NCBI GenBank assembly: GCA_947624035.1 | Contig: CANQIH010000001.1 | Location: 1 to 40,980 of the forward strand | Direction: 5' to 3' | From: an uncultured Oscillospiraceae bacterium | GTDB lineage: Bacteria; Bacillota; Clostridia; Oscillospirales; Oscillospiraceae | DNA: 40,980 nt | Shown: positions 3,519 to 36,173 of the stretch, in pieces | Layout of the letters: each line of letters starts with the position of its first letter | How positions within the stretch are numbered: the first letter of the stretch is position 1 | Program-made: the position numbers and the translations under genes | The notes under the pieces: generated by a model | Seen by the model: only the letters and a program-made list of their open reading frames with translations | Databases searched by the model: none | Told to the model about the DNA's origin: nothing

Positions 3519-3574
3519 GCCCTTTTTCATATTTTCACTTATAATATATGTAGTCCTATGGAGAACATGCTTAT

Positions 3575-7548: not shown

Positions 7549-7554
7549 GACAGT

Positions 7555-7600: not shown

Positions 7601-7616
7601 GTACAAAACATCTCTC

Positions 7617-11483: not shown

Positions 11484-11507
11484 CGTGTTTGCCTCCTGTA
11501 TGTAAAC

Positions 11508-14419: not shown

Positions 14420-14426
14420 CCCGCTG

Positions 14427-16277: not shown

Positions 16278-16326
16278 AAAGTCCTTCTCCTGGTCGGAAG
16301 CGTGGCGGCGCTATGGCCGCCCGCCG

Positions 16327-18750: not shown

Positions 18751-18752
18751 CC

Positions 18753-19541: not shown

Positions 19542-19755
19542 AATGTTCCCATTCCGGCACGTGCCCGCCAAGAGGACTGTGCCCATGCGTTATAAAATGA
19601 GCTTGTCAAAAAACACGTATACGCTTGGATGATGCAGGGGGAGCTTGAGGGGGGCGGAGTCCCGCCTCAAATGGGATAAAAAGCCGGCAAATGCCATTTG
19701 CGCCGCGCAGCGGCAGTATTTCATGACGGCTTTGACGGCAGGAAATACTCGGCTT

Positions 19756-19823
19756 TCAGGCTGTCAAAGACCCTTCTTTGACAGCCTGATAAAATGCCGG
19801 GAGACCGCCTAAGTGTCTCCCGG
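19756..19823 (-). terminator. Tandem terminator after the vWA-FHA gene
   Basis: Minus strand reads CCGGGAGAC, a 9-nt loop, GTCTCCCGG, then CATTTTA, immediately followed by a perfect 15-bp hairpin TCAGGCTGTCAAAGA-AGGG-TCTTTGACAGCCTGA. Confidence 0.6.
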
Positions 19824-19830
19824 CGGGTGG

Positions 19831-21738: not shown

Positions 21739-21854
21739 ACCTATCCCCTTCTCATGGAAAAATCGGTGCAGCGCTCCGCGCCGCTCATTATCAAACGCCA
21801 AACAGGGAGACGCGATCGCCGCGCTCCCCTCTGTCTCTATGTACACGCCCTGCC

Positions 21855-21884
21855 GCTGAAAACAGCGGACGCAGCTCTGCGTCC
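21855..21884 (-). terminator. Probable terminator ending the T7SS/effector transcription unit
   Basis: Minus strand: GGACGCAG-AG-CTGCGTCC followed by GCTGTTTTC, 30 nt after the DUF4176 stop. Confidence 0.5.
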
Positions 21885-21914
21885 CGCGCGCTCACCAGCA
21901 AGGCCGTTTCAAGC

Positions 21915-22178
21915 TCACTCATCCAGATGGCTCAGCTGCTCCAGGTATGCCAGACCTTCGCCGTCCTGCATGCCGACGAAATACAGCCGCTCGATCTGCT
22001 CGGTGTCAAAGAGGAACAGACGGTCCGGGTCGATGATCCCCTCAGGATACAGGCACGCGCTGTAATCCCAGACCTTGTCGGAATCCACCTGCTTTTGCTT
22101 CACACCGACGATCATGATCCGCTTCTGGCTGTCCTTCAGCAGCACCACAGAGCCGATCGGCAGATACCTCTTCTTCAT
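21915..22178 (-). CDS. DUF4176-like protein (T7SSb-associated accessory family)
   Basis: MKKRYLPIGSVVLLKDSQKRIMIVG...WDYSACLYPEGIIDPDRLFLFDTEQIERLYFVGMQDGE matches the DUF4176 pattern (LPIGSVV.L......(M/I)I.G....DY....YPEG......F....I). Confidence 0.7.
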   Translation of the reverse strand: MKKRYLPIGSVVLLKDSQKRIMIVGVKQKQVDSDKVWDYSACLYPEGIIDPDRLFLFDTEQIERLYFVGMQDGEGLAYLEQLSHLDE

Positions 22179-22195
22179 ATGACGTCCATCCTTTC

Positions 22196-22447
22196 CTATT
22201 TGGCCAATTCTTCCAATGTATACTCCCGCCCGCAGCTCTGGCAGGTAAAAAAGTACAGGTAGTGCTTCACCTGGGCGTTTGGGATGAACAGGGCGTCGCT
22301 GCCCGTGTTGAGCTGCTCGCCCTTGACGCTCTCAAAGCCCTTCCGCTTCACCAGCTGGCCCCCGCAGCGGGGGCAGCGCTTTTTCCCGAACAGGAGGTAC
22401 CGCAGCTCACTTGGCGTAAAGTCATACTGAAATCCCTTATGCTCCAT
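22196..22447 (-). CDS. Small zinc-ribbon protein (CPRC...CQSC), candidate immunity or accessory factor
   Basis: MEHKGFQYDFTPSELRYLLFGKKRCPRCGG...FFTCQSCGREY. It lies directly downstream of the candidate toxin. Function is inferred only. Confidence 0.6.
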   Translation of the reverse strand: MEHKGFQYDFTPSELRYLLFGKKRCPRCGGQLVKRKGFESVKGEQLNTGSDALFIPNAQVKHYLYFFTCQSCGREYTLEELAK

Positions 22448-22460
22448 GGCCCACACCAGC

Positions 22461-23603: not shown

Positions 23604-23650
23604 CGTGTGTCCTCCTGTCGTCGCCCAGCCGCCGGCGCTTGGCCCGGCCG

Positions 23651-23950
23651 TCAGCCGTCCATCAGATCGGCAAGACGCCTGTCAGCCTCCTCCAGGGCAT
23701 TCGCGAAACGGTCCAGCGCGCCGCTCACGCAGGCGAGATCGTCCTGCAGCGTGCGGAGCTGACGGCGGGAATCCCCCAGGGTCTTCTCCAGCGCATCCGC
23801 GGTCCGGCCCATAAAGTTCCCGTCCAGGCGGGAACCGGCCCTGTCCAGACGCGGCAGGGCCGAGGATGCCAGCATATCGGCGCAGCGCCTGATCTTCTGC
23901 GCTTCCCGGCGGATCGCCGCGGTATCGTAGTCATAGCCGTTATTGCTCAT
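23651..23950 (-). CDS. Small helical-hairpin protein, WXG100-superfamily-like (Lap2-type partner, cassette 2)
   Basis: 99 aa, with FMGRTADALE at the hairpin turn. Paralogous by eye to the 92-aa ORF at 25373..25651. RBS is AAAGAGGGGA. Confidence 0.65.
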   Translation of the reverse strand: MSNNGYDYDTAAIRREAQKIRRCADMLASSALPRLDRAGSRLDGNFMGRTADALEKTLGDSRRQLRTLQDDLACVSGALDRFANALEEADRRLADLMDG

Positions 23951-23970
23951 GCCGGTCCCCTCTTTCCTGG

Positions 23971-24001
23971 CCCGGTATCAGGGGAAACCCCTGATACCGG
24001 G
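23971..24001 (-). promoter_or_regulatory. Perfect 14-bp intercistronic stem-loop
   Basis: CCCGGTATCAGGGG-AAA-CCCCTGATACCGGG lies between the 110-aa and 99-aa genes. No U-tract follows. Confidence 0.6.
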
Positions 24002-24010
24002 CGGTCATGT

Positions 24011-24343
24011 TTACAGGTTGGACTGGTAGGCGGTGCCCGTCTCCAGACCCTGGGCCATCTGCTCGGCAGCCGTCTCCTGTTCCTCGTAGACGGACAGGGC
24101 CTCCTTCAGCTTGGAGATGACGTTGCTCATAACGGTCTCGTTCTGCTGAAGATTCTTGTAGAGCTGATCGAACTGGCTCTTAAACTTCTCGCTGGCCTCG
24201 CCGTGCCAGGTGCCGTCCAGCACACGGACTTCGTTGGAGATCTTCAGGTAGGCATTCTCCAGAGACACCTTCCTGGTCTCATAGTTGGTAATGGCGGTCT
24301 CAAGCGCCTCTCTGCTGACTCTCAGGTTGTCAATCACTGCCAT
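24011..24343 (-). CDS. WXG100-superfamily protein (WHG motif), Lap1/TIGR04197-like partner, cassette 2
   Basis: 110 aa with ...LDGTWHGEASEKFKSQF... Paralogous by eye to the 109-aa ORF at 25683..26012. RBS is GAAGGAGGA. Confidence 0.75.
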   Translation of the reverse strand: MAVIDNLRVSREALETAITNYETRKVSLENAYLKISNEVRVLDGTWHGEASEKFKSQFDQLYKNLQQNETVMSNVISKLKEALSVYEEQETAAEQMAQGLETGTAYQSNL

Positions 24344-24566
24344 GTTCTGTTCCTCCTTCGGTTACATTCTCATCGGTCAAATGGAGCATCGCCTGGAGAT
24401 TGTTTTCCATGCGGTGCAGCTCGCCCATCAGCTGGGCCATTGTTGTTTGCAGCTGCGCGGCCGCTTCTTTTTCAGTCAGCCCGGCAAACCGGGCAGCGGC
24501 TCCACCGTCCATTTCTGAGGACTGTTCCGCCGTGCAGCCAGGCGTGCCGCGTGTATCCTCCGGCAT
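24330..24566 (-). CDS. Hypothetical 78-aa protein
   Basis: Its ATG overlaps the upstream stop (TGATG), and it fills an otherwise 220-nt gap in a tightly packed operon. No recognisable motif. Confidence 0.45.
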   Translation of the reverse strand: MPEDTRGTPGCTAEQSSEMDGGAAARFAGLTEKEAAAQLQTTMAQLMGELHRMENNLQAMLHLTDENVTEGGTEHGSD

Positions 24567-24856
24567 CAGTGCGGGAAGTTCTTGGAAGAGTTGACGTCGG
24601 CCTCCTCGTACTCCCCGCGCGCCGTGTTCAGCTCTGCGGAATACGTATCCAGCACAGCGGCCAGCTCATCCATCCACTGGTGAAGCTGCTCCATGTTCTC
24701 GACGAACGTCTGAGAGGCATCGCCCGTCCAAGCCTCGCTCAGGGTCTGGGCGGCGTTGTAAATGCCGTTCGCCTCTTCCTTAAAGCTCTCGGTATAGTTG
24801 CTGATATTCTGCGCGGCGCTCTCCATTGCCGACAGGGTCACATCAAATTCAGCCAT
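24566..24856 (-). CDS. WXG100 (ESAT-6-like) protein
   Basis: 96 aa with ...LSEAWTGDASQTFVENM... (W-x-G at mid-length). RBS is AAGGAGGAA. Confidence 0.85.
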   Translation of the reverse strand: MAEFDVTLSAMESAAQNISNYTESFKEEANGIYNAAQTLSEAWTGDASQTFVENMEQLHQWMDELAAVLDTYSAELNTARGEYEEADVNSSKNFPH

Positions 24857-24898
24857 GCTTGTTCCTCCTTCGGATTACTCCTGTTGTTCATTCTTCCT

Positions 24899-25360
24899 TT
24901 AACCAAGAAACTGGTCCGCATCCGCCTCCGCTGCCGCGTTTACGAGCCACAGCGGAAGGGGCACCGTGTTTATCCGCATATCCGGCATAACGGTGAACGC
25001 ACCGGGTCCCCAGTTGACAAAGCCTTCGCCGGAAACATAGATGGGAGCTTCATGCGTCCTTTCCAGGGCCTCTCCCCTGCGTAGGATCCCAGCCTCTGTC
25101 TCCCGGAACGACTCATCCGTACGCCTTACGGCGTTCTCGTAGGCGTTCACACTGTCCCGCAGCGCCTTCATTCGCAGGACACAGTCCTCGAAACGGGCTG
25201 ACAGCGTTTGCAGCGCCTTGTTCTCACCATCAGGATTCGCCTCCGACAGCGCCAGCCGAACTGACGCGGCCATCTGAAGGCAATCCTCCAGTCCATGATC
25301 CGCCCGTCTCAAGCGGTCCATCGTCTCCTGCGCTGCGTTGCTGCTCCATTGGATCCTCAT
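24899..25360 (-). CDS. Helical T7SS-associated protein, possible short cargo of cassette 1
   Basis: 153 aa. The first ~100 aa are predicted helical, followed by a Trp/Pro/hydrophobic tail GFVNWGPGAFTVMPDMRINTVPLPLWLV. It occupies the same slot as the 380-aa protein in cassette 2. RBS is GGAGG. Confidence 0.55.
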   Translation of the reverse strand: MRIQWSSNAAQETMDRLRRADHGLEDCLQMAASVRLALSEANPDGENKALQTLSARFEDCVLRMKALRDSVNAYENAVRRTDESFRETEAGILRRGEALERTHEAPIYVSGEGFVNWGPGAFTVMPDMRINTVPLPLWLVNAAAEADADQFLG

Positions 25361-25372
25361 ACGAACCTCCAG

Positions 25373-25651
25373 TCACAGCTTTTCAGCCAGTTCATTATCC
25401 GCCTGTTCAAGCAGATCGGCATATACCATGATCCGGTGAGCCAGTTCTTCCATCTCCCCCTGCAGGCCGGCGGCCGCTTTGAGAAGCTGGTCCATCTGCT
25501 CTTCCATCGCCTGCGCGGTCCGCCCCCGGAAGCTCTCCAGGCACCCGGACGCATCCCGGACCGCAGGCATCACGTTTCCGTCCATATCCGCTGCCAGCTG
25601 CTTTAGCAGTCTTCCGGCGCCGCGTGTTTTTGCTGAATCATATACAGCCAA
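25373..25651 (-). CDS. Small helical-hairpin protein (Lap2-type partner, cassette 1)
   Basis: 92 aa with a TTG start and FRGRTAQAME at the turn. Paralogous to 23651..23950. Confidence 0.6.
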   Translation of the reverse strand: MAVYDSAKTRGAGRLLKQLAADMDGNVMPAVRDASGCLESFRGRTAQAMEEQMDQLLKAAAGLQGEMEELAHRIMVYADLLEQADNELAEKL

Positions 25652-25682
25652 TGCCGATCTACCTCTTCCTTACAGGATCAGA

Positions 25683-26012
25683 TCAAAGATAAGTGGGGGC
25701 GTTGGAGCCGACCTCCAGGGAGGCGGACTGATTGCCCACATTGCCCTCGGTGGTCTCCATCGTGTTGATGGTGTTGCGCAGGCCGGTCACCGTCTCGTCG
25801 ATGGCCCGGTCAGCGGTGATGACGTTGGCCTTGATGTCAACGTACCGTGCGCTCAGCGCCAGATAAGCGGGGCCCTTGTAGCAGTTGTCCAGGTGCTCCT
25901 TCGCGGCGTCCAGCTTCTGATAGGCGTCCTGGAGCGTCTGGCGGGCGGACTCATAGCGCTGGATGGCAGCTTCCATCTCGGCGGTGCTGACAAGAATACG
26001 ATCGTTTGCCAT
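25683..26012 (-). CDS. WXG100-superfamily-like protein (YKG in place of WXG), Lap1/TIGR04197-like partner, cassette 1
   Basis: 109 aa: MANDRILVSTAEMEAAIQRYE...NCYKGPAYLAL...SLEVGSNAPTYL. RBS is AAAGGAGGAA. Confidence 0.7.
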   Translation of the reverse strand: MANDRILVSTAEMEAAIQRYESARQTLQDAYQKLDAAKEHLDNCYKGPAYLALSARYVDIKANVITADRAIDETVTGLRNTINTMETTEGNVGNQSASLEVGSNAPTYL

Positions 26013-26031
26013 GGTTGTTTCCTCCTTTCAA

Positions 26032-26325
26032 TTAACCCTCTACGATGCTCTTGACGGCGTCTTCCATCTCGTTGTAAAGATCAATGAACTTCCGGATCAC
26101 CTGAATCATCTCGCGGATGATCCGCAGCATCTGCTGGTACCAGGTGTAGGCGTTCTCCTGATGGGCGACGAACGCGTCCTTCGTGGCGCCTTCCCACTTG
26201 CTGGCGAGATCGTTGGCAGCGCTCTTTGACGCCTCAACGGCCTCCTCGTAGATCTCCGCAGCCTGGTTCATTTCGTTGGCGGCCTGAGCGAGCTCAGCAG
26301 CCTGAACGAGCAGTTCCAATACCAT
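26032..26325 (-). CDS. esxA: WXG100 (EsxA/ESAT-6-like) protein
   Basis: 97 aa with ...LASKWEGATKDAFVAHQ... Perfect RBS AAAGGAGGAACAGGAAATG. It is preceded by a 138-nt intergenic region. Confidence 0.88.
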   Translation of the reverse strand: MVLELLVQAAELAQAANEMNQAAEIYEEAVEASKSAANDLASKWEGATKDAFVAHQENAYTWYQQMLRIIREMIQVIRKFIDLYNEMEDAVKSIVEG

Positions 26326-26463
26326 TTCCTGTTCCTCCTTTCTAAATTTGTCATCGCCTTATCTCCGGCGGTGATTGTATGCTAGCACACCCCATACGCT
26401 TTACGCCACACTTTGCGACGAACGGCAGTATTTTGGGTGTGAATAGCCGGATTTACGTCTTTT

Positions 26464-26715
26464 TTACATCAAGATCAGCTGTGAACCGTCCCGCAGACCC
26501 GCCTCCGCCACGGTCAGCCGGGGGTCCAGGATCATCTCACGGTCCCGGTCGCAGAGGATAGCCTGCTCCCGGTCGAACTCCAGGTCCTGCTGCGTCGTCT
26601 CCAGGATGCGGATCACCTCGTCGGTGATATCCCCCACGCGGCCGATGGACGGCAGACGAAAATCGTAGCTGGCCGATGTGGCGGGGATGTATACCTCAAC
26701 TATTATAGATTCCAT
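26464..26715 (-). CDS. esaB: YukD/EsaB ubiquitin-like T7SS component
   Basis: 83 aa: MESIIVEVYIPATSASYDFRLPS...LTVAEAGLRDGSQLILM, compared with the B. subtilis YukD pattern (FDLRL...L...G..DGD.L.L). The ATG lies 1 nt after the upstream TGA. Confidence 0.8.
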   Translation of the reverse strand: MESIIVEVYIPATSASYDFRLPSIGRVGDITDEVIRILETTQQDLEFDREQAILCDRDREMILDPRLTVAEAGLRDGSQLILM

Positions 26716-26716
26716 T

Positions 26717-27223
26717 TCACCGAACCTCACTCTCTTTCATCTGCTGGAAGAGGGATTGGAGCGCCTGCTGGCCGTCCCCCTCCCCGGAGAGGCTGTCTTT
26801 TATCACCAGGGACACATGCACCGGTCCCTCCAGACGGGCCGCCGCATCCTGGCATGGCTCCCATGCGCCCGCCATATCCGGCAGCGGCTCCAGCGTCAAC
26901 ACGCCGTCCTTCTCCTCCGCCAGCACGCATATCCGCGCGCCGCGGTACAGCACCGCCGTCCCGTTCTGCCCTCGCAGCGCCAGGCGGCATTTGCTCCGCC
27001 CCGCCTCACGCATGGTGAGCGAGACAGCCCTGTCCACCAGGACCCGTTCCCCGCACACCATCACCGTACCGCCCGCGATGAGGTCCTGCACCGTTTTCTC
27101 CTCCGGCTGCAGCGCCTTCACAGACGTATCCGGCAGCGACGGCAGGTCCATCAGCTTCAAAAGCGCGGCCAGCTCCCGGCTCCCGAACCGGAAAGCGATC
27201 CGCTCCACCGCGTCGTGGCTCAT
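26717..27223 (-). CDS. Hypothetical 168-aa soluble protein in the T7SS core operon
   Basis: ATGA overlap with the LytTR gene stop, with AAGGAGGTGA upstream of the ATG at 27223. The longer track ORF (to 27373) would overlap the LytTR gene. No motif recognised. Confidence 0.7.
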   Translation of the reverse strand: MSHDAVERIAFRFGSRELAALLKLMDLPSLPDTSVKALQPEEKTVQDLIAGGTVMVCGERVLVDRAVSLTMREAGRSKCRLALRGQNGTAVLYRGARICVLAEEKDGVLTLEPLPDMAGAWEPCQDAAARLEGPVHVSLVIKDSLSGEGDGQQALQSLFQQMKESEVR

Positions 27224-27969
27224 CCGCGGCTCACCTCCTTCAAGCGCTCCCGAAGGGCGTCCTTGTATGACCGCGACACAGGGAGCCGCTCGTTGGTCGT
27301 AAGGCAGACCGTCATCTCCGGCGATATAAAGCTCTCCACATAGTCCCTGTTCACGATATAGGAGCGGTGGCACCGGATAAAGCTCTCCGGCAGCTCCTCC
27401 GCCAGCGTGTTGAGGCTGGCGCGGATGGTGATGGCGTGGTGGGCCGTGCAGACACGCAGAAGCTTGTTCTGCGCCTCCAGATACAGGATATCCTTGTAGG
27501 CGATGCGCTGCACGGTGCCCCCTGTGCTCACGACCATGTACGCGCCCTCGTTCCCCTGCTCATACAGGGCCTCATAGTCGTTCAGGATGCGCCGCAGGCT
27601 CACCCGCGCCAGCTCATCCCGCAGAGGGAGCATCAGCACGCCCGCAGGCCGCATGCACCGGCTGAGGACGGCGTCCAGCAGGTTTCCGTCGTGGACGCAC
27701 AGCAGCGCATAGTTGTCCCGGTTGCGGCCCATCACACCGGCAAAGCGGCGGATGCAGCCCTCCGCACCTTCGGGCCCGGCGTCCGTCACGCCCAGGATCA
27801 CCAGCATGATGCCGGTCTCCGTCTCCACCATGCGGTCCAGCTCCGGGAGCGAGCCCGTCAGAAGCTCGATGCGCAGAGACGGGTATTCCCGGCGGACCAG
27901 CTCACCCAAAAGCTCCGCCCAGCGGGCACGGACCCGTTCATCCGGCTCGCAAATGACCACCGGAAGCAT
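27220..27969 (-). CDS. LytTR-family DNA-binding regulator with a degenerate (pseudo-)receiver domain
   Basis: C-terminal LytTR signature: IAYKDILYLEAQNKLLRV...FIRCHRSYIVNRDYV. The N-terminus is AgrA-like (VVICEPDE...; ALLCVHDG), but the phospho-acceptor position reads LVILGVTD against AgrA YFLDIQL. The ATG lies 6 nt after the essC stop, and its RBS GAGGAGGAG sits inside the essC 3' end. Confidence 0.8.
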   Translation of the reverse strand: MLPVVICEPDERVRARWAELLGELVRREYPSLRIELLTGSLPELDRMVETETGIMLVILGVTDAGPEGAEGCIRRFAGVMGRNRDNYALLCVHDGNLLDAVLSRCMRPAGVLMLPLRDELARVSLRRILNDYEALYEQGNEGAYMVVSTGGTVQRIAYKDILYLEAQNKLLRVCTAHHAITIRASLNTLAEELPESFIRCHRSYIVNRDYVESFISPEMTVCLTTNERLPVSRSYKDALRERLKEVSRG

Positions 27970-27975
27970 ACACGT

Positions 27976-30900
27976 TTACTCCTCCTCTTCCTTCTCCGCC
28001 AGGGGAACGACGATCTGGAGCGTGTTGCCGTTGTCCCCGGCGAATCCCTGGCCTATAGGCAGCGCTGCGCCCCGGACCTTGGAAGTGAGGGCCGCGCCCA
28101 CGTTGCAGGGGTCGAACTCCGTGAGCTTGCCGCCCAGCGCGATAGCCCGCCCCTGGGCGATGAGCTTCTTGAGCGGATCGTACATGACGGCTGTCTTCTC
28201 CGCCGAAGAGACGCCCATAAACACGGTGAAGTTGTAGTAGGGCTTCTCCACGATCTCCCCCAGCAGGCCCTGCACCATGGGAAGATGCTGCTTGTTGGGC
28301 TCCTTGTTGAACTCGCCGTAGAGCCGCTCCGCGTTGTCGATCAGCACGCAGCATGGCTTGAACTCCGCCGCCTGCCGGATCGCCGCCGCCTTGCCCTTGG
28401 CCACCGCCGCGTCATGCAGCGGCTTGCGGGCCTTGGCATAGCTGACGATGAACGACTGCAAAAACTGTGCGATCTCCTCCGGCGTGCTGTACAGCTTGGC
28501 GCCCAGCGTGCCGGCCAAATCGGTCCAGTTGTCGTCGGCGATGATGTGTACGTCCGCGCCGCGCTCTGTCATCACACGGGCCATCAGCTTCAGGAAGTTG
28601 GTGATGCCGCTTCGCTTCGGGCCGTAGACCGCCCAGGACGGCGCCTTCTCCGTATGGAGCGCAGCCATGGTGCCGCGGACCATGTCGTAGCCGATGGGCA
28701 GCGTGAAGGGCTCGGTCTTTGTCTGCCCGAACTCCTTCGCGGCGAACAGGGTCTCCCAGGTGGGGTCCTGGGGCAGACGGGGTATCCCGTCGGGACGGGC
28801 GCCATGCCAGGCGCTGTCCAGACCCTTCGCGTATCCAGCGATGAGCTCTGCCCTGTCCACATCGGTGAGCGGCTCGGTCATCTCCATCGCGTGGGTGACG
28901 GTATACTTCTCCCCCTGGGTCAAGGACTCGAAGCCCTCTTCCGTGTGGGCAGGCGCGGCGCCGCCCATGGCGAACTGTACCTCGTAGATCTTCCCCGCAA
29001 TGATGCCCATGCCGCGTCCGGTCAGAGCCGCGATGGGCGGCATATCGTAGGGGACCGTCTTGCCGATGCACTCGGTGTAGTCGCCCCGCTCCTTCAGCCG
29101 CAGGGCCACGCCGCCGAAGCTGGGACGGACCTTCATCGGCACCTCGTTGTTGGCCATGGCCGTCACCACGAAGTGGATGCCGCGGCCGCTGCCCTCCTGG
29201 AGCAGGGACTGGATGCGGGCCGTATAGAAGTCCTCGTTCGCGAACATCTCCCGCAGCTGGGCGTAGCGGTCCACGAACACCACGATGGCCGGCTCGGGCT
29301 TTTCGCCCCGCTTGACGCGGGCGGTGTTGTACTCCACGAAGCTGTCTGTGGAGGCGGCGGCGAACAGGTTCGCCCGGCGGCCCATCTCCGCGAAGAGCAT
29401 GTTGATGAACCGCTTGATCTCCAGTATCTCCCCGTCGAAGGCGATATCGCCCACCTGAGGGAACGCCAACAGGTTCCGAAGGGTCTGGCTGGTGAGGCTC
29501 AGGATATAGATGTTCAGATGCTCTGGATCGTAGAGGCTGCACAGGGAGTAGACCATGCTCTGGACCAGGGTCGTCTTGCCGGTGCCGGCCAGGCCCGTGA
29601 TCATCAGGTTGCGGTTCTGGGTCAGGTCCAGGGTGAAGGGCACGTAGCGCTGGTTGGCCACGTCGTCCGCCATGCCGGCCGGGATGATGATGTTCCCCGC
29701 CGGGTTGGGGTAGGCGCTGCCGTCCCACATGGCCCGCCGGAACATCTCGATATCCCGCAGGTAGATGTGCTGGGGCAGCTCCGGCAGCCAGAGCTGCCGG
29801 TTGGTGGACATGCCGTGCTCCGCGGCCACCTCCATGATGCGGTCCAGCACCGCCTCCATCTGGGACGGCGGCTTCTGGCCGGAGGACCCGCCCTTTTTGC
29901 CCGCCGGGACCACATGGCCGATGCTGCTGAGCAGCTGGGGCATCTCCTCCGGGCGGGGCTCATCCGGCTTGTAGGCCAGGCCGGAGTAGCTGGTCTGGAC
30001 CTGGTGGAACTCCTCGTCGTTGCCGATCTGGATGAAGCAGCGGCCCATGCCCTTGATGTAGGCGGCGTCTGGGCGCTTGAGCATCTCCATGGAGTCCTGG
30101 CGGGTCTGCACACGCAGGCACAGGTGGAACCGGGAGTTGGCCCAGATCTCGTCGCTGACCGAGTTGGACGGCTTCTGGGTGGCCAGGATGAGGTGGATGC
30201 CCAGGGAACGGCCCACGCGGGACGCGCTCACCAGCTCGCCCATGAACTCCGGCTGTTCGCTCTTCAGCTCGGCGAACTCGTCCACGATGATGATGAGGTG
30301 CGGCATCTCCCGGCCGGGGATGTCGCCGTACTGCCGGGTGTAGTCGTTGATGTTGTTGATCTGGACCTCTTTGAAGATGCGCTCGCGGCGGTGGATCTCG
30401 CCGTTGAGGGACGCCAGGGCCCGGTCGATCACCCGGGGACCCTGGAGGTTGTCGATGATGCCGGCCACATGGGGCAGTTCCCGGAAGGAGTCGGCCATGC
30501 CGCCGCCCTTGTAGTCGATGAGGATGAACTGCACCTGACGGGGGCTGTAGTTCAGGGCCAGCGAGAGGATGTATGTCTCCAGCATGACGGACTTGCCGGA
30601 GCCGGTGGTGCCGGCGATCAGGCCGTGGGGACCGTGGAAGCGGTCGGATATATCCAGCACGAAGGGCTGGGAGCCGGCCCGGTAGCCGATGACGGACTTG
30701 AGCCCCTCGTAGGTGTGGTTCTCCGTCCACATCCGCCAGACTTCCAGGTCCTCCGTCCGGCGCACGCCGTAGATATCCAGGAACGACACCAGCGTGGGGA
30801 TGGCGGCGTTCTCCGCCACGTCCCGCACCCGAATGGGCGCCATCGTGCGGGAGAAGGACCGGACCAGGCCCTTGTCCGGGTACTCGAAATCCACCTCGCG

Positions 30901-32733
30901 GGTGGTGCCCTCGCTGGAGTGTATGTGGCCCTTTCCGCCCTCCACGTTGAGCACCAGACGGCACTCCTTGGGCAGGTGGGTCATATCCTCTCCCAGCATC
31001 ACCAGCGTCATGCCCTGCCGGTTGGTCAGCAGCTGGCGCATGATGATCTCATCCTCCAGGATGCGGTAGTTGGTGCAGAAGATCACATAGTGGGGCAGCG
31101 GCGGCGCGTCCTTCGCGCCCTCCTCGCCATTGTCCCGGCCCGCCGACTCGGCGGCGTTGTTCTTTCGGATGGTCAGCACCTCTTCCAGGTGGCTCACCAC
31201 GTCGTGGACGTCGTCCGGGTTGGAGGCGACCATCCGCAGCTGCCGGTCCTCACTGGCGAACACATGGGGCAGCCAGCGGGCCCAGGACCACTGGGACAGG
31301 CTCCCCTCCTCCGTCAGTACGGCGATGCGCACGTCGTGGTAGCTGTGCAGCGCGGCGATCTGCATCAAAAGGCCCTGGGCGAACAGGGTCGCCCGTACGC
31401 CGCCCAGGATGCCGATCACGGCCTCGTCCCGCAGGGGCAGCGTCACCGGGGCGTTGTGCACGACGGAATAGGTCTGCCGCAGCCGCTCGGGCTCCTGGCG
31501 GAGATCGTCGTCGATCAGGGACAGCTTCTCCTTGGGGACGGATATCTCGCAGGGCATGTCCACCGTGCCGGTGCCCACGCGCACATGGAGGAAGTCCCCG
31601 TGCAGGGGCATCCGGTCCCACATCTGGTGGGTATTGGCCGCCGGCAGCGCGGCGCACTGGGCCACATTGGGGAACGTATCCATCAGACGGCGGTGCTCCC
31701 GCTCGTTCATGGTCCTCAGGATGCTCTCCATCTCCGTGATGTACCGCTGGTACATCCCGATGCGGCGGTTCTCCATTATGATCTCAGTTTTCTTTCGGTG
31801 GGTGCGGTTGATGAGGCCCCACATCACAGCCAGCACGGAGGACGTGCCGATCATCACGACGCCGCTGGAGAGCAGCCCGTTGCGGTTGCTGGCCACCAGC
31901 GTGCCCATCAGCATGGGCAGGATCATGGTCATGGACGGACCCAGCTGAAGGAGCAGCGGCTGCTGGTTGGGGTCGGGCTTGGGCAGCGGCGCCTCGATGT
32001 CCACATCCTCCGCCTCGCAGGGCGTGAGCATGCGGGGGATGCGCTGATACTCCCGGTAAACGCTTGGCAGCTCCTGGTCCTCACCGTCCGGGAGGGCCTT
32101 GACATAGTCCACGCGCCACTTCTCCAGGCGGCACTCCTGGCTGGTGGCCGTCCGGCTGACAGCGATGCACTTGTCGAGATAGATGACCTTCAGGCCCGTG
32201 GGGAACGCCAGCACGTCGCCGAACTTCAGCTTGACCTTGCTGCCGATCATCTTCAGCCCGTTCAGATATGTACCGTTGGTGGACTTATCCTGATACCGGA
32301 CATACCCGTCCTGGGTCAGGCCCAGGTATCCGTGCTCCGTGCTCATGAGCGCGCCCGTATCCCGGATATCCGCGTTCTCCCCGCGGCCGATGACCAGCAT
32401 CCGCTGCTTGGGCATGGCATATTTGGAAAAGCGCAGCCAGTGCTTGTCGCAGGGCTTCACGACCATCATGATCTCCCGGCCGCTTTGGGGCTCACACATG
32501 GTGAACACCGAGTCGCCCTTGACCTCGCGCTCCCGGCGCCCGCCGCCCTTCCAGCTCAGCGGCGTCTGGGGAGAGACCCAGACGCGGCCGTCCAGAGAGC
32601 GGACGGAGATATACATATCATAGTCCAGACCGGCCTCATCCTGGCGGAGGACGATCTTTCTGTTCCAGCTTTTCAGGTCCGGGAAATACACATCCTTGAA
32701 CCAGTCGCCGTACATCAGCCATGCGGTGTACAT
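27976..32733 (-). CDS. essC: EssC/YukB-type FtsK-SpoIIIE ATPase (T7SSb motor): two N-terminal FHA domains, 2 TM, three P-loop domains
   Basis: 1585 aa. FHA-2 reads LVIGRGEN...MSTEHG...STNGTYLNG. TMs are LGPSMTMILPMLMGTLVA and VVMIGTSSVLAVMWGLI. Walker A motifs are GTTGSGKS (D1), GLAGTGKT (D2) and a degenerate GPKRSGIT (D3). RBS is GGAGG. Confidence 0.93.
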   Translation of the reverse strand: MYTAWLMYGDWFKDVYFPDLKSWNRKIVLRQDEAGLDYDMYISVRSLDGRVWVSPQTPLSWKGGGRREREVKGDSVFTMCEPQSGREIMMVVKPCDKHWLRFSKYAMPKQRMLVIGRGENADIRDTGALMSTEHGYLGLTQDGYVRYQDKSTNGTYLNGLKMIGSKVKLKFGDVLAFPTGLKVIYLDKCIAVSRTATSQECRLEKWRVDYVKALPDGEDQELPSVYREYQRIPRMLTPCEAEDVDIEAPLPKPDPNQQPLLLQLGPSMTMILPMLMGTLVASNRNGLLSSGVVMIGTSSVLAVMWGLINRTHRKKTEIIMENRRIGMYQRYITEMESILRTMNEREHRRLMDTFPNVAQCAALPAANTHQMWDRMPLHGDFLHVRVGTGTVDMPCEISVPKEKLSLIDDDLRQEPERLRQTYSVVHNAPVTLPLRDEAVIGILGGVRATLFAQGLLMQIAALHSYHDVRIAVLTEEGSLSQWSWARWLPHVFASEDRQLRMVASNPDDVHDVVSHLEEVLTIRKNNAAESAGRDNGEEGAKDAPPLPHYVIFCTNYRILEDEIIMRQLLTNRQGMTLVMLGEDMTHLPKECRLVLNVEGGKGHIHSSEGTTREVDFEYPDKGLVRSFSRTMAPIRVRDVAENAAIPTLVSFLDIYGVRRTEDLEVWRMWTENHTYEGLKSVIGYRAGSQPFVLDISDRFHGPHGLIAGTTGSGKSVMLETYILSLALNYSPRQVQFILIDYKGGGMADSFRELPHVAGIIDNLQGPRVIDRALASLNGEIHRRERIFKEVQINNINDYTRQYGDIPGREMPHLIIIVDEFAELKSEQPEFMGELVSASRVGRSLGIHLILATQKPSNSVSDEIWANSRFHLCLRVQTRQDSMEMLKRPDAAYIKGMGRCFIQIGNDEEFHQVQTSYSGLAYKPDEPRPEEMPQLLSSIGHVVPAGKKGGSSGQKPPSQMEAVLDRIMEVAAEHGMSTNRQLWLPELPQHIYLRDIEMFRRAMWDGSAYPNPAGNIIIPAGMADDVANQRYVPFTLDLTQNRNLMITGLAGTGKTTLVQSMVYSLCSLYDPEHLNIYILSLTSQTLRNLLAFPQVGDIAFDGEILEIKRFINMLFAEMGRRANLFAAASTDSFVEYNTARVKRGEKPEPAIVVFVDRYAQLREMFANEDFYTARIQSLLQEGSGRGIHFVVTAMANNEVPMKVRPSFGGVALRLKERGDYTECIGKTVPYDMPPIAALTGRGMGIIAGKIYEVQFAMGGAAPAHTEEGFESLTQGEKYTVTHAMEMTEPLTDVDRAELIAGYAKGLDSAWHGARPDGIPRLPQDPTWETLFAAKEFGQTKTEPFTLPIGYDMVRGTMAALHTEKAPSWAVYGPKRSGITNFLKLMARVMTERGADVHIIADDNWTDLAGTLGAKLYSTPEEIAQFLQSFIVSYAKARKPLHDAAVAKGKAAAIRQAAEFKPCCVLIDNAERLYGEFNKEPNKQHLPMVQGLLGEIVEKPYYNFTVFMGVSSAEKTAVMYDPLKKLIAQGRAIALGGKLTEFDPCNVGAALTSKVRGAALPIGQGFAGDNGNTLQIVVPLAEKEEEE

Positions 32734-32753
32734 ATCATATATCCTCCCGCCGA

Positions 32754-34091
32754 TCAGTAATAAGCGTACTCCACCTCAAAGGGCCGGTCGTTGATGGTGA
32801 GCCGGTCGCCCTGGACCAGCCGGTACGGCTGTTCCGCCGTCATGCGCGTGCTGTTGAGATACGTCCCGTTCACCGAGCCCAGGTCAACCGCGTAGCAGGC
32901 GTCCTCATCCTGATGGTATTCGATGCGCAGATGGCGGCGGCCGATACGGGGATCGTTCAGCTTGAAGTCGTTGTGCACTTCGCGTCCGATGGTGTACACC
33001 GGCCTGTCCACCATGATCCTCTGCCCCTCCACAGCGCCCTGCTCCGCCAGGATGAGGTATGTCCTCTTGGCGGGCTGCACCGGGGGAGGCACCGGCTTGC
33101 CGGAGGTATCCAGCAGGACGTTCTTTTTCTTTCTGGCAAAGAGCTCGGGCTTTTGACGCTTCAGGATCACCAGACTGACGAGGAGGATGGCGATCCCCAG
33201 AAGCAGATAGAGCAGGCTCGCCAGCGCCAGCAGGAGCAGGATGGCCGCCACCGGGATCAGGATGATGATGAGATACAGAGAGCGGTTCTCCACCGTCCCC
33301 TCCGGCGTGCTCTTGGCCGTCAGCTTGATGATCAGCACCACGATGACGCAGATGAGGGCGAAGGCGATGAGCAGCACCAGCGCGTTCGGCAGGCTGACGC
33401 CTGATATCTCGCTGCTCCCCTTCACATAGGACAGCACGCGCCCGCTGAAGCTCAGGGCGGAGGAATACGCCGCCGCATCGTCGCCGAACAGCACCGACTG
33501 CAGCTCCGCCGTGATGCCCTCGCCGTCCTCATAGACCAGCTTATTGCAGCGCACGAACTCGTCGATCACATCCTGCAGCGCGCCGTCGTATACGCCGGGC
33601 GTCAGGCCGTCCGACACGGCGTCGTAGCCCAGCTGATTGAGCCGGTTCTGCACCCGCGTGACCGCCTCGCCCTCAGCGCCGGGGAGGAGGTCGGCATACT
33701 CGCCGCCCTCGGGCGTGACCAGCGGTCCCTCCGTCTCGCCCATGACCCGCCAGTACAGGGAATAGGTCACGCCGTCCTCATAATAGGTGAACTCCGGGTT
33801 GAGGCGGCACACCTGCATCACCGCAGCCATGGTCAGGTCGTCCAGCTCCTTGGACTGGAGAACGGCATCGCTGGCGCCTGCAGTGTAGAACCCGAGTTCA
33901 TTGAGCCGCGCCTTGAAATTGATGACGTCGACACTCACGACGTTGGGATCGTCGTCGACCTTAAATATAAATTCGGCATCGAAGTCGAACTCGTCCCCCT
34001 CGGCGGCGTACGCCGCGGCCGTGAAGGACAGGACGGCTGCCACCGCCAGGACGGCTGCCAGTATCCGCATCATCTTATTTCTCAGTGCCAT
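32754..34091 (-). CDS. Membrane protein: signal peptide, two PG_binding_1-like repeats (exported), ~3 TM, cytoplasmic FHA domain
   Basis: Signal peptide ILAAVLAVAAVLSFTAAAYAAE. Repeats ARLNELGFYTAG...TMAAVMQV and VQNRLNQLGYDAVSDGLTPGVYDGALQDVIDEFV. Hydrophobic stretches LVLLIAFALICVIVVLII and LYLIIILIPVAAILLLLALASLLYLLLGIAILLVSLVIL. FHA reads YTIGREV...IGRRHLRI...SVNGTYLN. Confidence 0.82.
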   Translation of the reverse strand: MALRNKMMRILAAVLAVAAVLSFTAAAYAAEGDEFDFDAEFIFKVDDDPNVVSVDVINFKARLNELGFYTAGASDAVLQSKELDDLTMAAVMQVCRLNPEFTYYEDGVTYSLYWRVMGETEGPLVTPEGGEYADLLPGAEGEAVTRVQNRLNQLGYDAVSDGLTPGVYDGALQDVIDEFVRCNKLVYEDGEGITAELQSVLFGDDAAAYSSALSFSGRVLSYVKGSSEISGVSLPNALVLLIAFALICVIVVLIIKLTAKSTPEGTVENRSLYLIIILIPVAAILLLLALASLLYLLLGIAILLVSLVILKRQKPELFARKKKNVLLDTSGKPVPPPVQPAKRTYLILAEQGAVEGQRIMVDRPVYTIGREVHNDFKLNDPRIGRRHLRIEYHQDEDACYAVDLGSVNGTYLNSTRMTAEQPYRLVQGDRLTINDRPFEVEYAYY

Positions 34092-34145
34092 CGCCTTTAT
34101 CCCTCCTGCCGGCGGCCGGCATCACGGCCCGTCCGCCGGTCACTC

Positions 34146-35102
34146 TTATACACGTTCGTCCGTCTCGGATATGAGTATTTTTATCTCCGGGCAGAACATC
34201 AGCTTGCGCCGCGCCGCCTCTGCGGGCGATTCTATATGGCGCACCTCTCCGTCCAGCGGGGCGGTCTCTTCCAGATCTGCCGACGTCTGCTCCCTGGCGT
34301 CCGCGGCCGCCGCCTCAGGGATCCCGGATGCGAGACACCCCTCCAGATCGGTCCGTACCTCCGCGCAGCTGCCGTACCGGTCCTCCACGGCCTCCGCCGT
34401 ACACCGGCGGATGACCTCCGCCAATTCTCCGGGCGGCATCCCGGTCCACTGCGGGGCCGGAGACGGCTGCCCCCCGTCCGGTAGGACACGGCCCGTCACC
34501 AGCGTATAGAGCGTGGCGCCCAGGCCATATATATCCGTTCGGACGTCCGCGGGACTGCCCTTTTTAAACTGCTCCGGCGCCGCAAAGCCCCGGGTCCCAA
34601 GCGGCTGTCCCCCGGCCGTCTCCTGTTCGCCCGGCGCACGGGCGATGCCCAGGTCAAAAAGCCGGATCGACAGCGGCTCTTCAGCCAGGAGCATGATGTT
34701 GGCCGGCTTCACGTCCCTGCAGACCACCGGCGACGGAAGATCGTGCAGATAGCCCAGCACATCGCACAGCTGGATGCCGATCCGAACGGCCAGCTCCGCC
34801 GGCAGCGGTCCCCGCTCCCGGACCACGGCGTCCAGCGTCTTTCCGGCCAGATAGTCCATGACGATATAGACGGCGTCCCCATCCTCCAAGACCTCCTCCA
34901 CCCGGGGGAGCATGGGATGGTCAAGCCGCCGCGCAAGCTCCGCCTCCGCCAGCGCGCCGCCGGACGGCTGCCGCAGCTCCTTTACCGCCCATTGGCGGCC
35001 GGTGCTCCTGTCCACAGCAAGATAGACGGCCGCCATGCCGCCGCGTCCTATCTCGCCCAGAAGCTCATATTTTCCATTCAGCACTTTACCGGTATCCGGC
35101 AC
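34146..35102 (-). CDS. Soluble Hanks-type Ser/Thr kinase (STK-1), no TM segment
   Basis: GRGGMAAVY, WAVKEL, CRDVKPANIM (C in place of the H of HRD), DLGIARA and GTRGFAAPE. GTG start with AGGGGTGA upstream. Confidence 0.85.
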   Translation of the reverse strand: MPDTGKVLNGKYELLGEIGRGGMAAVYLAVDRSTGRQWAVKELRQPSGGALAEAELARRLDHPMLPRVEEVLEDGDAVYIVMDYLAGKTLDAVVRERGPLPAELAVRIGIQLCDVLGYLHDLPSPVVCRDVKPANIMLLAEEPLSIRLFDLGIARAPGEQETAGGQPLGTRGFAAPEQFKKGSPADVRTDIYGLGATLYTLVTGRVLPDGGQPSPAPQWTGMPPGELAEVIRRCTAEAVEDRYGSCAEVRTDLEGCLASGIPEAAAADAREQTSADLEETAPLDGEVRHIESPAEAARRKLMFCPEIKILISETDERV

Positions 35103-35121
35103 TGCGAATCACCCCTGCCGT

Positions 35122-35892
35122 TCAGATCATCCTGACGGCGACCGCCGTGATATTGTCGGTCTCGCCGCGATCCATAGCGCGCCTTGCCAGCGTGGAGAGC
35201 GCATGCTCCATCCCGCCCCGGCGCTTTCCCGCCGCCTTCCAGAGCGCCTCGCGCATCTCCCGCGGGGGCAGCTGGTGACGGAAGCCGTCTGAGCACAGCA
35301 AAAACACCGAGTCCGGACGGACGTCCTGCTCCAGGATATCCGGCGCGAGGCCCAGCGTCTCGCCCAGGCACTGGTACAGGATGTTGCGCCTCCTGTCCGT
35401 CTCGGCCTGCTCGGGCGTCAAAAGACCGCTGTCCGCCTCCCGCTGCACCAGCGTGTGGTCCTTGGTCAGCTGTCTGATATCCGCCCGGCTTATCTCGTAT
35501 ATCCTCGAATCCCCCACGTTCGCCGTGACACAGTGTCCGTCGTAGAGCAGGAGCATGGTGAGCGTGGTCCCCATATCCTGCCTGTGCCGCGCCGCGTGAT
35601 TCTCCAGCAGGGTGCTGATGCGGCGGAGGACCAGCTCTATGCCCCTCCGGAGCACGGAGAGATCATAGCCGTCCTGCAGCAGGATGGGCAGCCTCTCGTC
35701 AAACCAGTCCGAGAGCTCATGGACCGCGGTCGAGCTGGCGAGGTCGCCGTGGGCCCGCCCTCCCATGCCGTCGCAGACGGCGGCCATGACCAGCGGGCCG
35801 TTCACCGTCCTGGCTGTGCGGATCACCAGGGAGTCCTCGTCCACCGGCCTCCTCGTGCCCTTATCCGTATAGTGCGCCACCTGTACATCCAT
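35122..35892 (-). CDS. PP2C-family Ser/Thr phosphatase (PP2C-1), first gene of the T7SS operon
   Basis: AAVCDGMGGRAHGDLAS, LLCSDGF and TDNITAVAV. The ATG at 35892 has AGGTGA upstream. Confidence 0.88.
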   Translation of the reverse strand: MDVQVAHYTDKGTRRPVDEDSLVIRTARTVNGPLVMAAVCDGMGGRAHGDLASSTAVHELSDWFDERLPILLQDGYDLSVLRRGIELVLRRISTLLENHAARHRQDMGTTLTMLLLYDGHCVTANVGDSRIYEISRADIRQLTKDHTLVQREADSGLLTPEQAETDRRRNILYQCLGETLGLAPDILEQDVRPDSVFLLCSDGFRHQLPPREMREALWKAAGKRRGGMEHALSTLARRAMDRGETDNITAVAVRMI

Positions 35893-36025: not shown

Positions 36026-36054
36026 ATTATAGCAAAGCAATCCAGCGTGCACAA
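36026..36054 (-). promoter_or_regulatory. Candidate sigma-A promoter of the T7SS operon (extended -10)
   Basis: Minus strand reads TTGTGC, a 17-nt spacer, then TGCTATAAT. A second TATAAT lies at 36004-36009. The region is AT-rich. Confidence 0.45.
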
Positions 36055-36147: not shown

Positions 36148-36155
36148 CTCTATCC

Positions 36156-36173
36156 ATATATATATATATATAT
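36156..36173. repeat. (AT)9 dinucleotide microsatellite
   Basis: ATATATATATATATATAT ends 2 nt upstream (on the plus strand) of the MATE stop codon at 36176-36178. Confidence 0.95.

Follow-up and report, generated by a model that had tools for sequence, protein, structure and literature searches.

A type VII secretion locus with FHA membrane proteins, Ser/Thr kinase, PP2C phosphatase and LytTR regulator genes and without detectable EssA, EssB or EsaA in an uncultured Oscillospiraceae bacterium

What is known of type VII secretion systems (T7SS) in Bacillota comes mostly from work on Staphylococcus, Bacillus and streptococci. We analysed a T7SS locus of an uncultured Oscillospiraceae bacterium, carried on a DNA stretch of 40,980 nucleotides (assembly GCA_947624035.1, contig CANQIH010000001.1, positions 1 to 40,980; hereafter the window). 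In this locus an EssC-type ATPase is encoded together with a membrane protein bearing an FHA domain, a Ser/Thr kinase, a PP2C phosphatase and a LytTR regulator. A previous sequence-only reading of the same DNA had taken it for a non-canonical operon of the b type (T7SSb), a candidate for gating by threonine phosphorylation. Our data point to a system outside T7SSb, in which FHA proteins would be the membrane partners of EssC.

Results

Genes of the locus and their order

Domain calls with Pfam and NCBIfam models and a transmembrane (TM) scan were made over the open reading frames (ORFs) of the window, the G+C content of which is ~63%. All credible genes between 21.9 and 35.9 kb lie on the minus strand, and the spacing within this run (21915-35892) is -14 to +60 nt, with the single exception of 138 nt (26326-26463) between YukD and the first, esxA-like WXG100 gene. 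The order is PP2C phosphatase, soluble Ser/Thr kinase, peptidoglycan (PG)-binding/TM/FHA protein, EssC, LytTR regulator, a 168-aa protein, YukD, about six WXG100 proteins, a putative effector and DUF4176. Both this order and the tight spacing had been described from the sequence before, and they are confirmed by the ORF coordinates and by Pfam/NCBIfam matches for each domain call. The features are as follows.

35122..35892, minus strand: PP2C-1, a PPM-type Ser/Thr phosphatase, 256 aa from the ATG at 35892 (PF13672 E=1e-13; PF00481)
34146..35102, minus strand: STK-1, a soluble Hanks-type Ser/Thr kinase, 318 aa (Pkinase E=5e-35)
32754..34091, minus strand: membrane FHA protein, 445 aa (FHA E=1e-17; PG_binding_1 32.6 bits, cutoff 23; Yop-YscD_cpl 36.0 bits, cutoff 33.2)
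27976..32733, minus strand: EssC-type FtsK/SpoIIIE ATPase, 1585 aa, with an N-terminal FHA region and 2 TM segments (TIGR03928 919.7 bits)
27220..27969, minus strand: LytTR DNA-binding regulator with a degenerate receiver-like N-terminal domain (PF04397 E=2e-24)
26717..27223, minus strand: 168-aa EspG-like protein, a putative T7 chaperone (TsxG-like), ATG at 27223
26464..26730, minus strand: YukD/EsaB ubiquitin-like protein, kept in related loci (PF08817 36.9 bits, cutoff 27)
26412-26443, minus strand: candidate LytTR operator, two TTC-N5/6-AAA repeats 21 nt apart (conserved block in a 6-locus alignment)
26379-26387, minus strand: extended -10-like TGnTAGCAT, ~28 nt downstream of the repeats, 5' of esxA
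23651..26325, minus strand: WXG100 array with small helical partner genes (PF06013)
22461-23603, minus strand: 380-aa protein with a helical/coiled-coil N-terminus and a Gly-rich, mildly hydrophobic C-terminus (no family)
22196-22456, minus strand: 86-aa four-Cys Zn-ribbon protein (weak zinc-ribbon matches, best E=0.0027)
21915-22178, minus strand: DUF4176 protein (E=1e-27)

The general T7SS components are therefore all present, namely an EssC/EccC-family ATPase, YukD and five WXG100 ORFs above cutoff. Long ORFs on the opposite strand at 27367-32760 (+, 1797 aa), 8190-13154 (+, 1654 aa) and 23639-25084 (+, 481 aa) are shadow ORFs of high-G+C DNA and not genes.

Membrane partners of EssC

EssA, EssB/YukC and EsaA/YueB had zero Pfam or NCBIfam matches among the ORFs scanned in the window. 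Searches by phmmer --max with EsaA, EssA and EssB of Listeria kieliensis, taken from a canonical T7SSb locus (L021), against all six-frame ORFs of >=30 aa from the window and 12 related loci returned a best E of ~0.75; for the EssB query the best E within the window was 5. The TM scan found no polytopic ORF of EsaA size (~1000 aa) in the window and no small TM-bearing ORF of the EssA kind in 21.9-35.9 kb, where TM-like segments occur in EssC and the FHA protein only. The longest gap, 138 nt, is too short for another gene. Additionally, none of the three genes was found within ~10 kb of EssC in ~18 related loci. The previously claimed absence of EssA, EssB and EsaA thus stands for the window, the phmmer search including ORFs of >=30 aa, and for the same reason the label T7SSb has to be given up: a locus without these proteins fails the component-based definition of that type.

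The protein that lies next to EssC is composed of a signal peptide, a PG-binding ectodomain, a TM segment, a 2-TM hairpin and a cytoplasmic FHA domain; TM-like segments were found at residues 5-32, 228-264 and 267-314, and the domain call places three after the signal peptide. Most relatives encode two proteins here, the first with a signal peptide, PG-binding domain, TM segment and FHA domain (367-405 aa) and the second a 2TM-FHA protein (~183 aa). In the window and in L001, the closest related locus, the ectodomain and TM segment of the first protein are joined to the whole second protein and one FHA domain is lost. Sequence comparison with two-gene versions (L003 2540-4204, L007 8260-9973, L009 8176-9973) indicates that the 445-aa protein is a lineage-specific gene fusion, and it co-occurs with the insertion of the soluble kinase and PP2C genes upstream (window and L001/L002 only). 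The family is small, with ~12 homologs among 5.8e9 proteins, and five of the five homologs whose genomic context was examined lie beside EssC. The proposal that EssC is partnered by an FHA membrane protein was thus well founded, since the pairing persists among related loci even where EssC identity has fallen to 39-46%.

The EssC FHA domain and the position of EssC among T7SS ATPases

EssC matches FtsK_SpoIIIE (E=2e-54) and exceeds the cutoff of TIGR03928, the NCBIfam EssC (Firmicutes) equivalog (778.4 bits). Its FHA match covers residues 114-177, aligns to Rad53 FHA1 and contains the phosphothreonine (pThr)-binding residues G116-R117, S131xxH134 and N153-G; in an alignment of 16 EssC proteins of the clade, GR is found in 14/16 and NG in 16/16. 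Judged by these residues, the FHA domain of EssC looks able to bind phosphothreonine. In TsbC, the EssC of T7SSb, GR and SxxH are at 0% (Table S1, PMC11217815), while the pThr motifs reach 98-100% in the kinase-associated subtypes d, e and j (PMC11217815), and across Table S1 the conservation of the motifs tracks the presence of a kinase (PMC11217815).

Published reference ATPases (TsxC) were retyped from Fig. S2 of PMC11217815 and represent the N-terminal 700-970 aa only, with some optical character recognition (OCR) noise. With the N-terminal 918 aa of the window EssC as BLASTP query, TsiC scored 472 bits (36% identity, over the N-terminal 840 aa), TseC 438, TsfC 430 and Listeria EssC 427, and at the lower end stood TsjC with 382 and S. 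aureus EssC with 353. A neighbour-joining (NJ) tree with 100 bootstraps was built from EssC ORFs chosen by their Walker A motif. The window EssC clade has a bootstrap of 100 and joins a Ruminococcus/Blautia/Lachnospiraceae/Oscillospiraceae group at 92; TsiC, the reference for which is the N-terminal 900 aa with OCR noise, is sister to the combined group with a bootstrap of only 52, and T7SSb, c, d/e, f, g, h and j fall elsewhere. Relatives of the ATPase number in the hundreds and carry the labels Clostridia, Oscillospiraceae, Lawsonibacter or Candidatus Ornithocaccomicrobium, and a single EssC cluster contains 75 members on dozens of contigs.

Conservation of the locus in related genomes

Gene neighbourhoods were compared at EssC identities of 77, 75, 72, 66, 64, 56, 51, 46, 44, 42 and 39%, and loci at ~36% identity were added from metagenome-assembled genomes (MAGs) of Ruminococcus, Blautia, Lachnospiraceae, Oscillospiraceae and Hungatella, which makes ~18 non-redundant loci of Clostridia MAGs overall. 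The added loci came from a contig scan with an EssC alignment, in which identity was <=37% among the matches listed and which was a source of reference loci only. A conserved block, consisting of the membrane FHA protein or proteins, EssC, LytTR, a protein of 165-240 aa, YukD, the WXG100 array, cargo and DUF4176, keeps its synteny from 77% down to ~36% EssC identity. A separate FHA protein is encoded in ~16/18 related loci, PP2C in ~13/18, a vWA-TM-FHA protein in ~10/18 and a Ser/Thr kinase in at least 8/18, the kinase count being a lower bound because contigs end. By comparison, PP2C, kinase and FHA genes are present in 0/5 canonical T7SSb loci (Listeria, two Streptococcus and two Bacillota/Clostridiales MAGs), all of which have EssB and EsaA; in the canonical loci L021, L023, L025 and L036 the EssA/EssB/EsaA genes adjoin essC. 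The linkage of kinase, phosphatase and FHA genes to EssC, on which the sequence-only reading depended, is therefore real but not obligatory.

Certain copies of the T7 locus have other kinds of genes at their flanks, namely serine resolvase, helix-turn-helix (HTH) and AbiEi genes in L003-L006 (1-2400) and relaxase, NikA and DnaB-like genes in L011 (20700-23300). Copies flanked in this way may ride on mobile elements.

The soluble kinase and its phosphatase

STK-1 keeps the G-loop, K41, CRD(130)xKPxN, D150-L-G and APE motifs, has Cys in place of the His of HRD in the catalytic loop and contains no TM-like segment in the TM scan. In PP2C-1 the metal-binding motifs DGMGG, SDG and DN are all kept. 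With their catalytic motifs intact, both enzymes look active. An STK-1 ortholog occupies the same position in L001/L002 only, and a soluble kinase with PP2C directly upstream of the FHA gene is likewise confined to the window and this closest relative; among the remaining relatives, some lack a neighbouring kinase gene and others have membrane kinases at another place in the locus. Therefore, an operon led by a PP2C/kinase module, as it had been described, is a trait of one sublineage and not of the system in general. STK-1 was also considered as a replacement for EssB, that is, as the partner bound by the FHA domain, but this was not adopted as the main model, the kinase being found only in the window/L001 lineage.

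An AGGTGA lies 5 nt 5' of the PP2C-1 ATG. Further upstream on the minus strand we noticed TTGTGC-17 nt-TGcTATAAT (36026-36034) and a leader hairpin with a 14-bp stem and a weak T tract (35961-35928), which might act as an attenuator or be what is left of a terminator; a (TA)9 run lies just past the MatE stop codon (~36150-36170). Alignment of this region with L001 is uninformative, as the same region is coding there.

The LytTR regulator and a candidate operator

The LytTR gene follows essC directly, a position kept in 15 of the ~18 related loci. The DNA-binding domain matches AgrA and the 3d6w LytTR domains. The N-terminal half shows a (beta-alpha)5-like pattern in a single-sequence AlphaFold2 (AF2) model, which was of low confidence (predicted local distance difference test, pLDDT, 43) and served for the secondary-structure pattern only. 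At the expected phospho-acceptor Asp this half has Gly ('ILGV'), and the conserved Lys is missing; the acceptor position is Gly or Ala in the window clade and Asp in 3/4 of the distant (Lachnospiraceae-type) orthologs. No histidine kinase gene was found near the LytTR gene.

Rfam gave zero matches across the whole window and a sigma-70 consensus scan of 21.5-36.3 kb gave zero promoters; the promoter-like elements reported here were read by eye and from conservation. The repeat block 5' of esxA is present in a single copy per locus in 8 loci, always 5' of the first WXG100 gene (L001 17654-17685, L003 10522-10553, L004 8929-8960, L006 10583-10614, L007 16302-16333, L008 16448-16479, L009 22688-22719 on the minus strand), and the repeat was found nowhere else in ~0.95 Mb. 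In L009, where the WXG array is relocated and inverted, the repeat block has moved along with it. A repeat spacing of 21-22 nt is the known geometry of LytTR operators bound by AgrA-type regulators. Since the 21-nt spacing matches this geometry, we infer that the repeats at 26412-26443 are a candidate binding site of the co-encoded LytTR protein.

Putative chaperone, WXG100 array and cargo

The 168-aa protein has no sequence family in Pfam or NCBIfam, and a homolog search returned 3 relatives only, which is the reason for the shallow alignment behind its AF2 model. A Foldseek search of the PDB with this model gave EspG1/3/5, the mycobacterial T7SS chaperones, as all of the top 17 matches (best E=4e-5, prob 1.0, TMq 0.44). 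Remote homology (hhalign 86%, E=5e-6) links the 168-aa protein to the 229-242 aa proteins that stand at this position in Lachnospiraceae-type loci. On the strength of the modelled fold we describe it as EspG-like and a putative T7 chaperone.

The WXG100 ORFs above the Pfam cutoff are 26032-26325 (esxA-like), 25683-26012, 24566-24856, 24011-24343 and 23651-23950; a further match at 25373-25651 is below threshold, and small helical ORFs lie at 24899-25360 (153 aa) and 24330-24566 (78 aa). The same array in the same order is found in L001, L003-L008 and L093. The 380-aa protein, the Zn-ribbon protein and DUF4176 that follow resemble in their sequence features a set of effector, immunity protein and chaperone, the 380-aa Gly-rich protein and its Zn-ribbon neighbour being likely a toxin and immunity pair. 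In L007, L008, L011, L012 and L093 this slot holds a protein of about the same length, again with DUF4176 behind it, for which no homology to the 380-aa protein was detected.

The adjacent signalling cluster

Beyond the DUF4176 gene lies a second group of genes.

19831-21846, minus strand: protein with an ectodomain vWA, TM segment and FHA domain (Pfam, TM scan)
18753-19586, minus strand: PP2C-2 (Pfam)
16327-18798, minus strand: membrane kinase with NPCBM ectodomains (Pfam, TM scan)
14427-16277, minus strand: membrane kinase with Flg_new_2 ectodomains (Pfam, TM scan)
13133-14527, minus strand, and 4945-7548, plus strand: transglutaminase-like proteins (Pfam)
11508-13142, minus strand: secreted 544-aa protein
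7617-11483, minus strand: DUF1002/WG-repeat protein, 1288 aa (Pfam)

The whole window contains three Pkinase, two PP2C, three FHA and two Transglut_core domains as well as WG repeats. Of the set of domains claimed in the sequence-only reading, kinase, PP2C and FHA do lie within 21855-35892; vWA is absent from this span and is found in the adjacent cluster only. The vWA-FHA proteins flank the T7 genes, on either side, in the ~10 related loci that have them, and the equivalent place in relatives is taken by RCC1/WD40, Big_6/Big_13, LRR or transglutaminase proteins. The cluster at 14427-21846 probably belongs to the T7 system. The proteins at 4945-14527 are possibly its sensory or surface part, a membership that we infer.

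Two large proteins stand beside the T7 genes of other loci, a 2834-aa kinase with Big_13/Big_6/MG4 repeats (L094, 21979-24617 and beyond) and a 2011-aa protein of no family (L010, 1862-7897); both are possible surface sensors. In the window the flank at 1879-4264 contains nusA and rimP, both housekeeping genes, and the gene of a sigma-70-family factor, and the cluster is therefore chromosomal in the source organism.

Discussion

Our analysis implies that the locus is related to several published T7SS types and is identical to none of them. The subtypes T7SSc-T7SSj, none of which has EssA, EssB or EsaA, were defined from RefSeq neighbourhoods by Garrett, Higginson and Palmer (Microlife, 2024; PMC11217815). 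Many of these subtypes have TsxD kinases, TsxF PPM phosphatases, separate FHA proteins (TsxJ), vWA (TscE), EspG-like proteins (TsxG) or a LytTR protein (TsiN), and the authors suggested, citing the T6SS precedent, that threonine phosphorylation may control assembly or activity (PMC11217815). Furthermore, a 2026 bioRxiv preprint describes in Schaalia a vWA/MoxR/kinase/phosphatase/FHA pathway, named Esr, which is genetically linked to Esx and phosphorylates an FHA output protein on Thr (PMC13622651). In one case the export of some substrates is controlled post-translationally, while Esr1 of Schaalia acts transcriptionally; FHA-mediated modulation of EccC is proposed, and Esr is reported to be effectively confined to Actinomycetes (PMC13622651). 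A statement that no such regulatory module had been described for these systems is thus out of date, given the published kinase/PPM/FHA variants with their T6SS-style hypothesis and the experimental support from Actinomycetales.

The nearest published subtype is T7SSi of Vallitalea. It has an EssC with an N-terminal FHA region (TsiC), YukD-like TsiB, EspG-like TsiG, WXG100 proteins with cargo and LytTR-family TsiN with a CheY-like domain, and TsiC is the best published match of the window EssC. However, the bootstrap of 52% is low, and 36% identity is no closer than the typical distance between subtypes. TsiM, a ParA/MinD-like P-loop protein with a C-terminal TM segment, was not found in the window or in the related loci. 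A separate FHA protein is missing from T7SSi, as are a kinase and a phosphatase, and the pThr motifs of TsiC are poor (20/30/90%; PMC11217815), whereas in the window clade FHA membrane proteins, PP2C, kinases and vWA-FHA proteins recur and GR/SxxH/NG are largely kept.

A second likeness is to T7SSe, T7SSf and T7SSj of Clostridia, Clostridium and Bacillota, which also lack EssA, EssB and EsaA and have a PPM phosphatase (TsxF) and a separate FHA protein (TsxJ), with a kinase in e and j. TsfJ of T7SSf consists of 2 TM segments followed by a C-terminal FHA domain, similar to the 2TM-FHA half of our protein, and pThr motifs are conserved in TseC and TsjC. The differences are again considerable. The FHA proteins of our clade have a PG-binding ectodomain and are without DUF6382 (no match in the 445-aa protein at E<=0.1), and the LytTR and EspG-like proteins present here are missing from T7SSe/f/j. 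Neither TsfV (an AAA+ ATPase with a TadZ-like receiver domain) nor a giant Ig-like protein of the TsxI type was found in the window. TsxD kinases are membrane-bound, whereas here the operon encodes a soluble kinase and the adjacent cluster contributes the membrane kinases, and the window EssC stands outside the TseC, TsdC, TsjC and TsfC branches of the NJ tree. With canonical T7SSb (S. aureus Ess, B. subtilis Yuk) the locus shares an EssC with an FHA region, YukD/EsaB, EsxA, DUF4176 and small helical cargo partners, but EssA, EssB/YukC and EsaA/YueB are missing, the pThr residues of the EssC FHA are present, and LytTR, EspG-like, FHA membrane, PP2C and kinase genes are extra. In summary, components B, C, G and N are common with T7SSi and F, loosely also J, with T7SSe/f/j; judged by gene content, the set matches none of the eight published subtypes c-j. 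The locus looks like a further, undescribed T7SS subtype.

Systems of other kinds offer analogies. At the level of domain classes the Esr pathway resembles our locus: T7SS genes have as neighbours those for a vWA protein, Ser/Thr kinase and phosphatase, an FHA output protein, a transglutaminase and large surface proteins with repeats or beta-propellers. However, the vWA domain here is predicted to be extracytoplasmic and fused via a TM segment to FHA, and MoxR/AAA_3 had no match in any window ORF scanned; membership in the Esr pathway was rejected for the lack of MoxR and the different vWA topology. Threonine phosphorylation pathways are known from the H1-T6SS of P. aeruginosa (PpkA/PppA/Fha1) and from A. 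tumefaciens (TssL-Fha). As in these type VI secretion systems (T6SS), a Hanks kinase, PP2C and FHA proteins are encoded with the secretion machine here, and weak TagH/VI_FHA matches were seen, but the machine is unrelated and the likeness, known here from genes alone, is a functional analogy. YscD/EscD of type III secretion systems (T3SS) is likewise a bitopic membrane protein whose cytoplasmic FHA domain scaffolds a secretion machine; its domain order is opposite, and our protein has a PG-binding ectodomain instead of ring-building motifs. The Yop-YscD_cpl match therefore reflects the FHA fold and not orthology.

The best explanation of these data, to which we give a probability of roughly 60%, is a non-b T7SS that is common in gut Clostridia (MAGs of Oscillospiraceae, Lachnospiraceae and Ruminococcus type), uses FHA proteins as membrane partners of EssC and is under phosphothreonine and LytTR control. 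One or two membrane FHA proteins would take the place of EssA, EssB and EsaA; the PG-binding/TM/FHA protein would anchor and scaffold the EssC complex in the envelope, with the 2TM-FHA protein as a co-scaffold. Phosphothreonine marks would be written by STK-1 and the neighbouring membrane kinases with sensor ectodomains, erased by the PP2C phosphatases and read by the FHA domains of EssC, its membrane partner and the vWA-TM-FHA protein, which may control assembly or activity. Envelope or competitor signals would reach the system through the nearby sensor kinases and vWA-FHA protein. The LytTR protein, lacking its phospho-acceptor Asp, would drive the operon of esxA, WXG and effector genes from the tandem-repeat operator, and the EspG-like protein and DUF4176 would chaperone the WXG-paired cargo. 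With an operator of LytTR type on one side and the kinase/phosphatase/FHA set on the other, control would be transcriptional and likely also post-translational; judged from the genes, post-translational gating by phosphorylation is plausible. Most plausibly, the system exports WXG100-chaperoned toxins in response to envelope or competitor cues.

Several points weigh against this explanation. This clade is known from sequence alone, and we have one contig in hand, so that the absence of EssA, EssB and EsaA holds for the window and not for the whole genome. A conserved phospho-acceptor Thr could not be identified. The EspG-like assignment depends on a model of medium confidence (pLDDT 64.6, TM-score ~0.44), and the operator is assigned to the LytTR protein from geometry and co-occurrence only. 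The FHA domain of T7SSb EssC binds EssB independently of phosphorylation (PMC11217815), which means that an FHA domain can be purely structural. In the membrane protein itself the Ser of SxxH is replaced by Gly (IGRRH), which may weaken pThr binding, and the replacement is found in the 2TM-FHA family of the window, L001, L003, L006 and L008. Finally, in the DNA available for L003-L006 and L008, FHA proteins are encoded and neither a kinase nor a phosphatase was found, so that phosphorylation may be dispensable there or supplied in trans.

One could go further and propose that the locus represents an undescribed T7SSi-related subtype of gut Clostridia, in which FHA proteins, one of them PG-anchored, are the sole membrane partners of EssC. 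An Esr-like surface-sensing module without MoxR (ecto-vWA-TM-FHA protein, sensor kinases, PP2C, transglutaminases and repeat or beta-propeller proteins) would control it through pThr docking on the EssC FHA domain and through a receiver-dead LytTR activator at the esxA operator. We offer this proposal tentatively. If true, the module would be a Firmicute counterpart, convergent or distantly related, of the Esx threat-sensing control in Actinomycetales.

Among the alternatives, the one that survives best, although we consider it rather unlikely, is that the FHA membrane proteins are phospho-independent structural stand-ins for EssB and EsaA, and that the kinase, phosphatase and vWA-FHA proteins form a separate sensing pathway with a mainly transcriptional output, through LytTR or another factor. 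The lost Ser, the loci that lack enzymes and the behaviour of the T7SSb FHA domain, all mentioned above, fit this idea, as do the transcriptional action of Esr1 in Schaalia (PMC13622651) and the conserved operator with an Asp-less LytTR protein, which suggests non-canonical transcriptional control. However, the EssC FHA domain keeps all pThr-binding residues, unlike that of T7SSb, and the Table S1 relation between motifs and kinases (PMC11217815) speaks for their use. Additionally, in the window and L001 the kinase and phosphatase genes are translationally coupled to those of the FHA protein and EssC (gaps of 19-54 nt).

It is very improbable that the locus is an ordinary T7SSb with its EssA, EssB and EsaA genes elsewhere in the genome. 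The equivalog score of EssC and the view of a 41-kb window only would allow it, but canonical loci keep these genes beside essC and none of the three was found within ~10 kb in the ~18 related loci; the ATPase branches outside T7SSb and has the pThr motifs missing from T7SSb EssC, and in genomes with T7SSc a b-type component was not found elsewhere by the authors of the 2024 survey (PMC11217815). The idea that kinase, phosphatase and FHA genes, which are common in Bacillota and vary in their position relative to essC, serve general envelope or cell-division signalling and are chance neighbours of the T7 genes has hardly any credit, because they recur despite unrelated outer flanks at 36-77% EssC identity and are absent from T7SSb loci, and because the FHA membrane family, small as it is, was beside EssC wherever its context was examined.

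What is new here is the EspG-like 168-aa protein, the pThr residues of EssC, the FHA fusion, the LytTR-type operator and the recurring cluster of vWA-FHA, PP2C, kinase and transglutaminase genes. As control of T7SS by kinase, phosphatase and FHA proteins is already published, the gain is incremental and no change of paradigm. The survey of 2024 is based on RefSeq, and in the part of its supplements available to us we found no genus names of Oscillospiraceae or Ruminococcaceae (PMC11217815); therefore, the uncultured gut Clostridia in which this clade abounds may have been missed. If confirmed, our reading would extend the catalogue of T7SS architectures and offer, in EssC and the FHA proteins, a minimal membrane complex for structural work. 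It would also supply a testable case of a Gram-positive secretion machine under phosphothreonine control, in commensals abundant in the gut, and it would tie T7-mediated antagonism in the gut to dedicated surface-sensing kinases.

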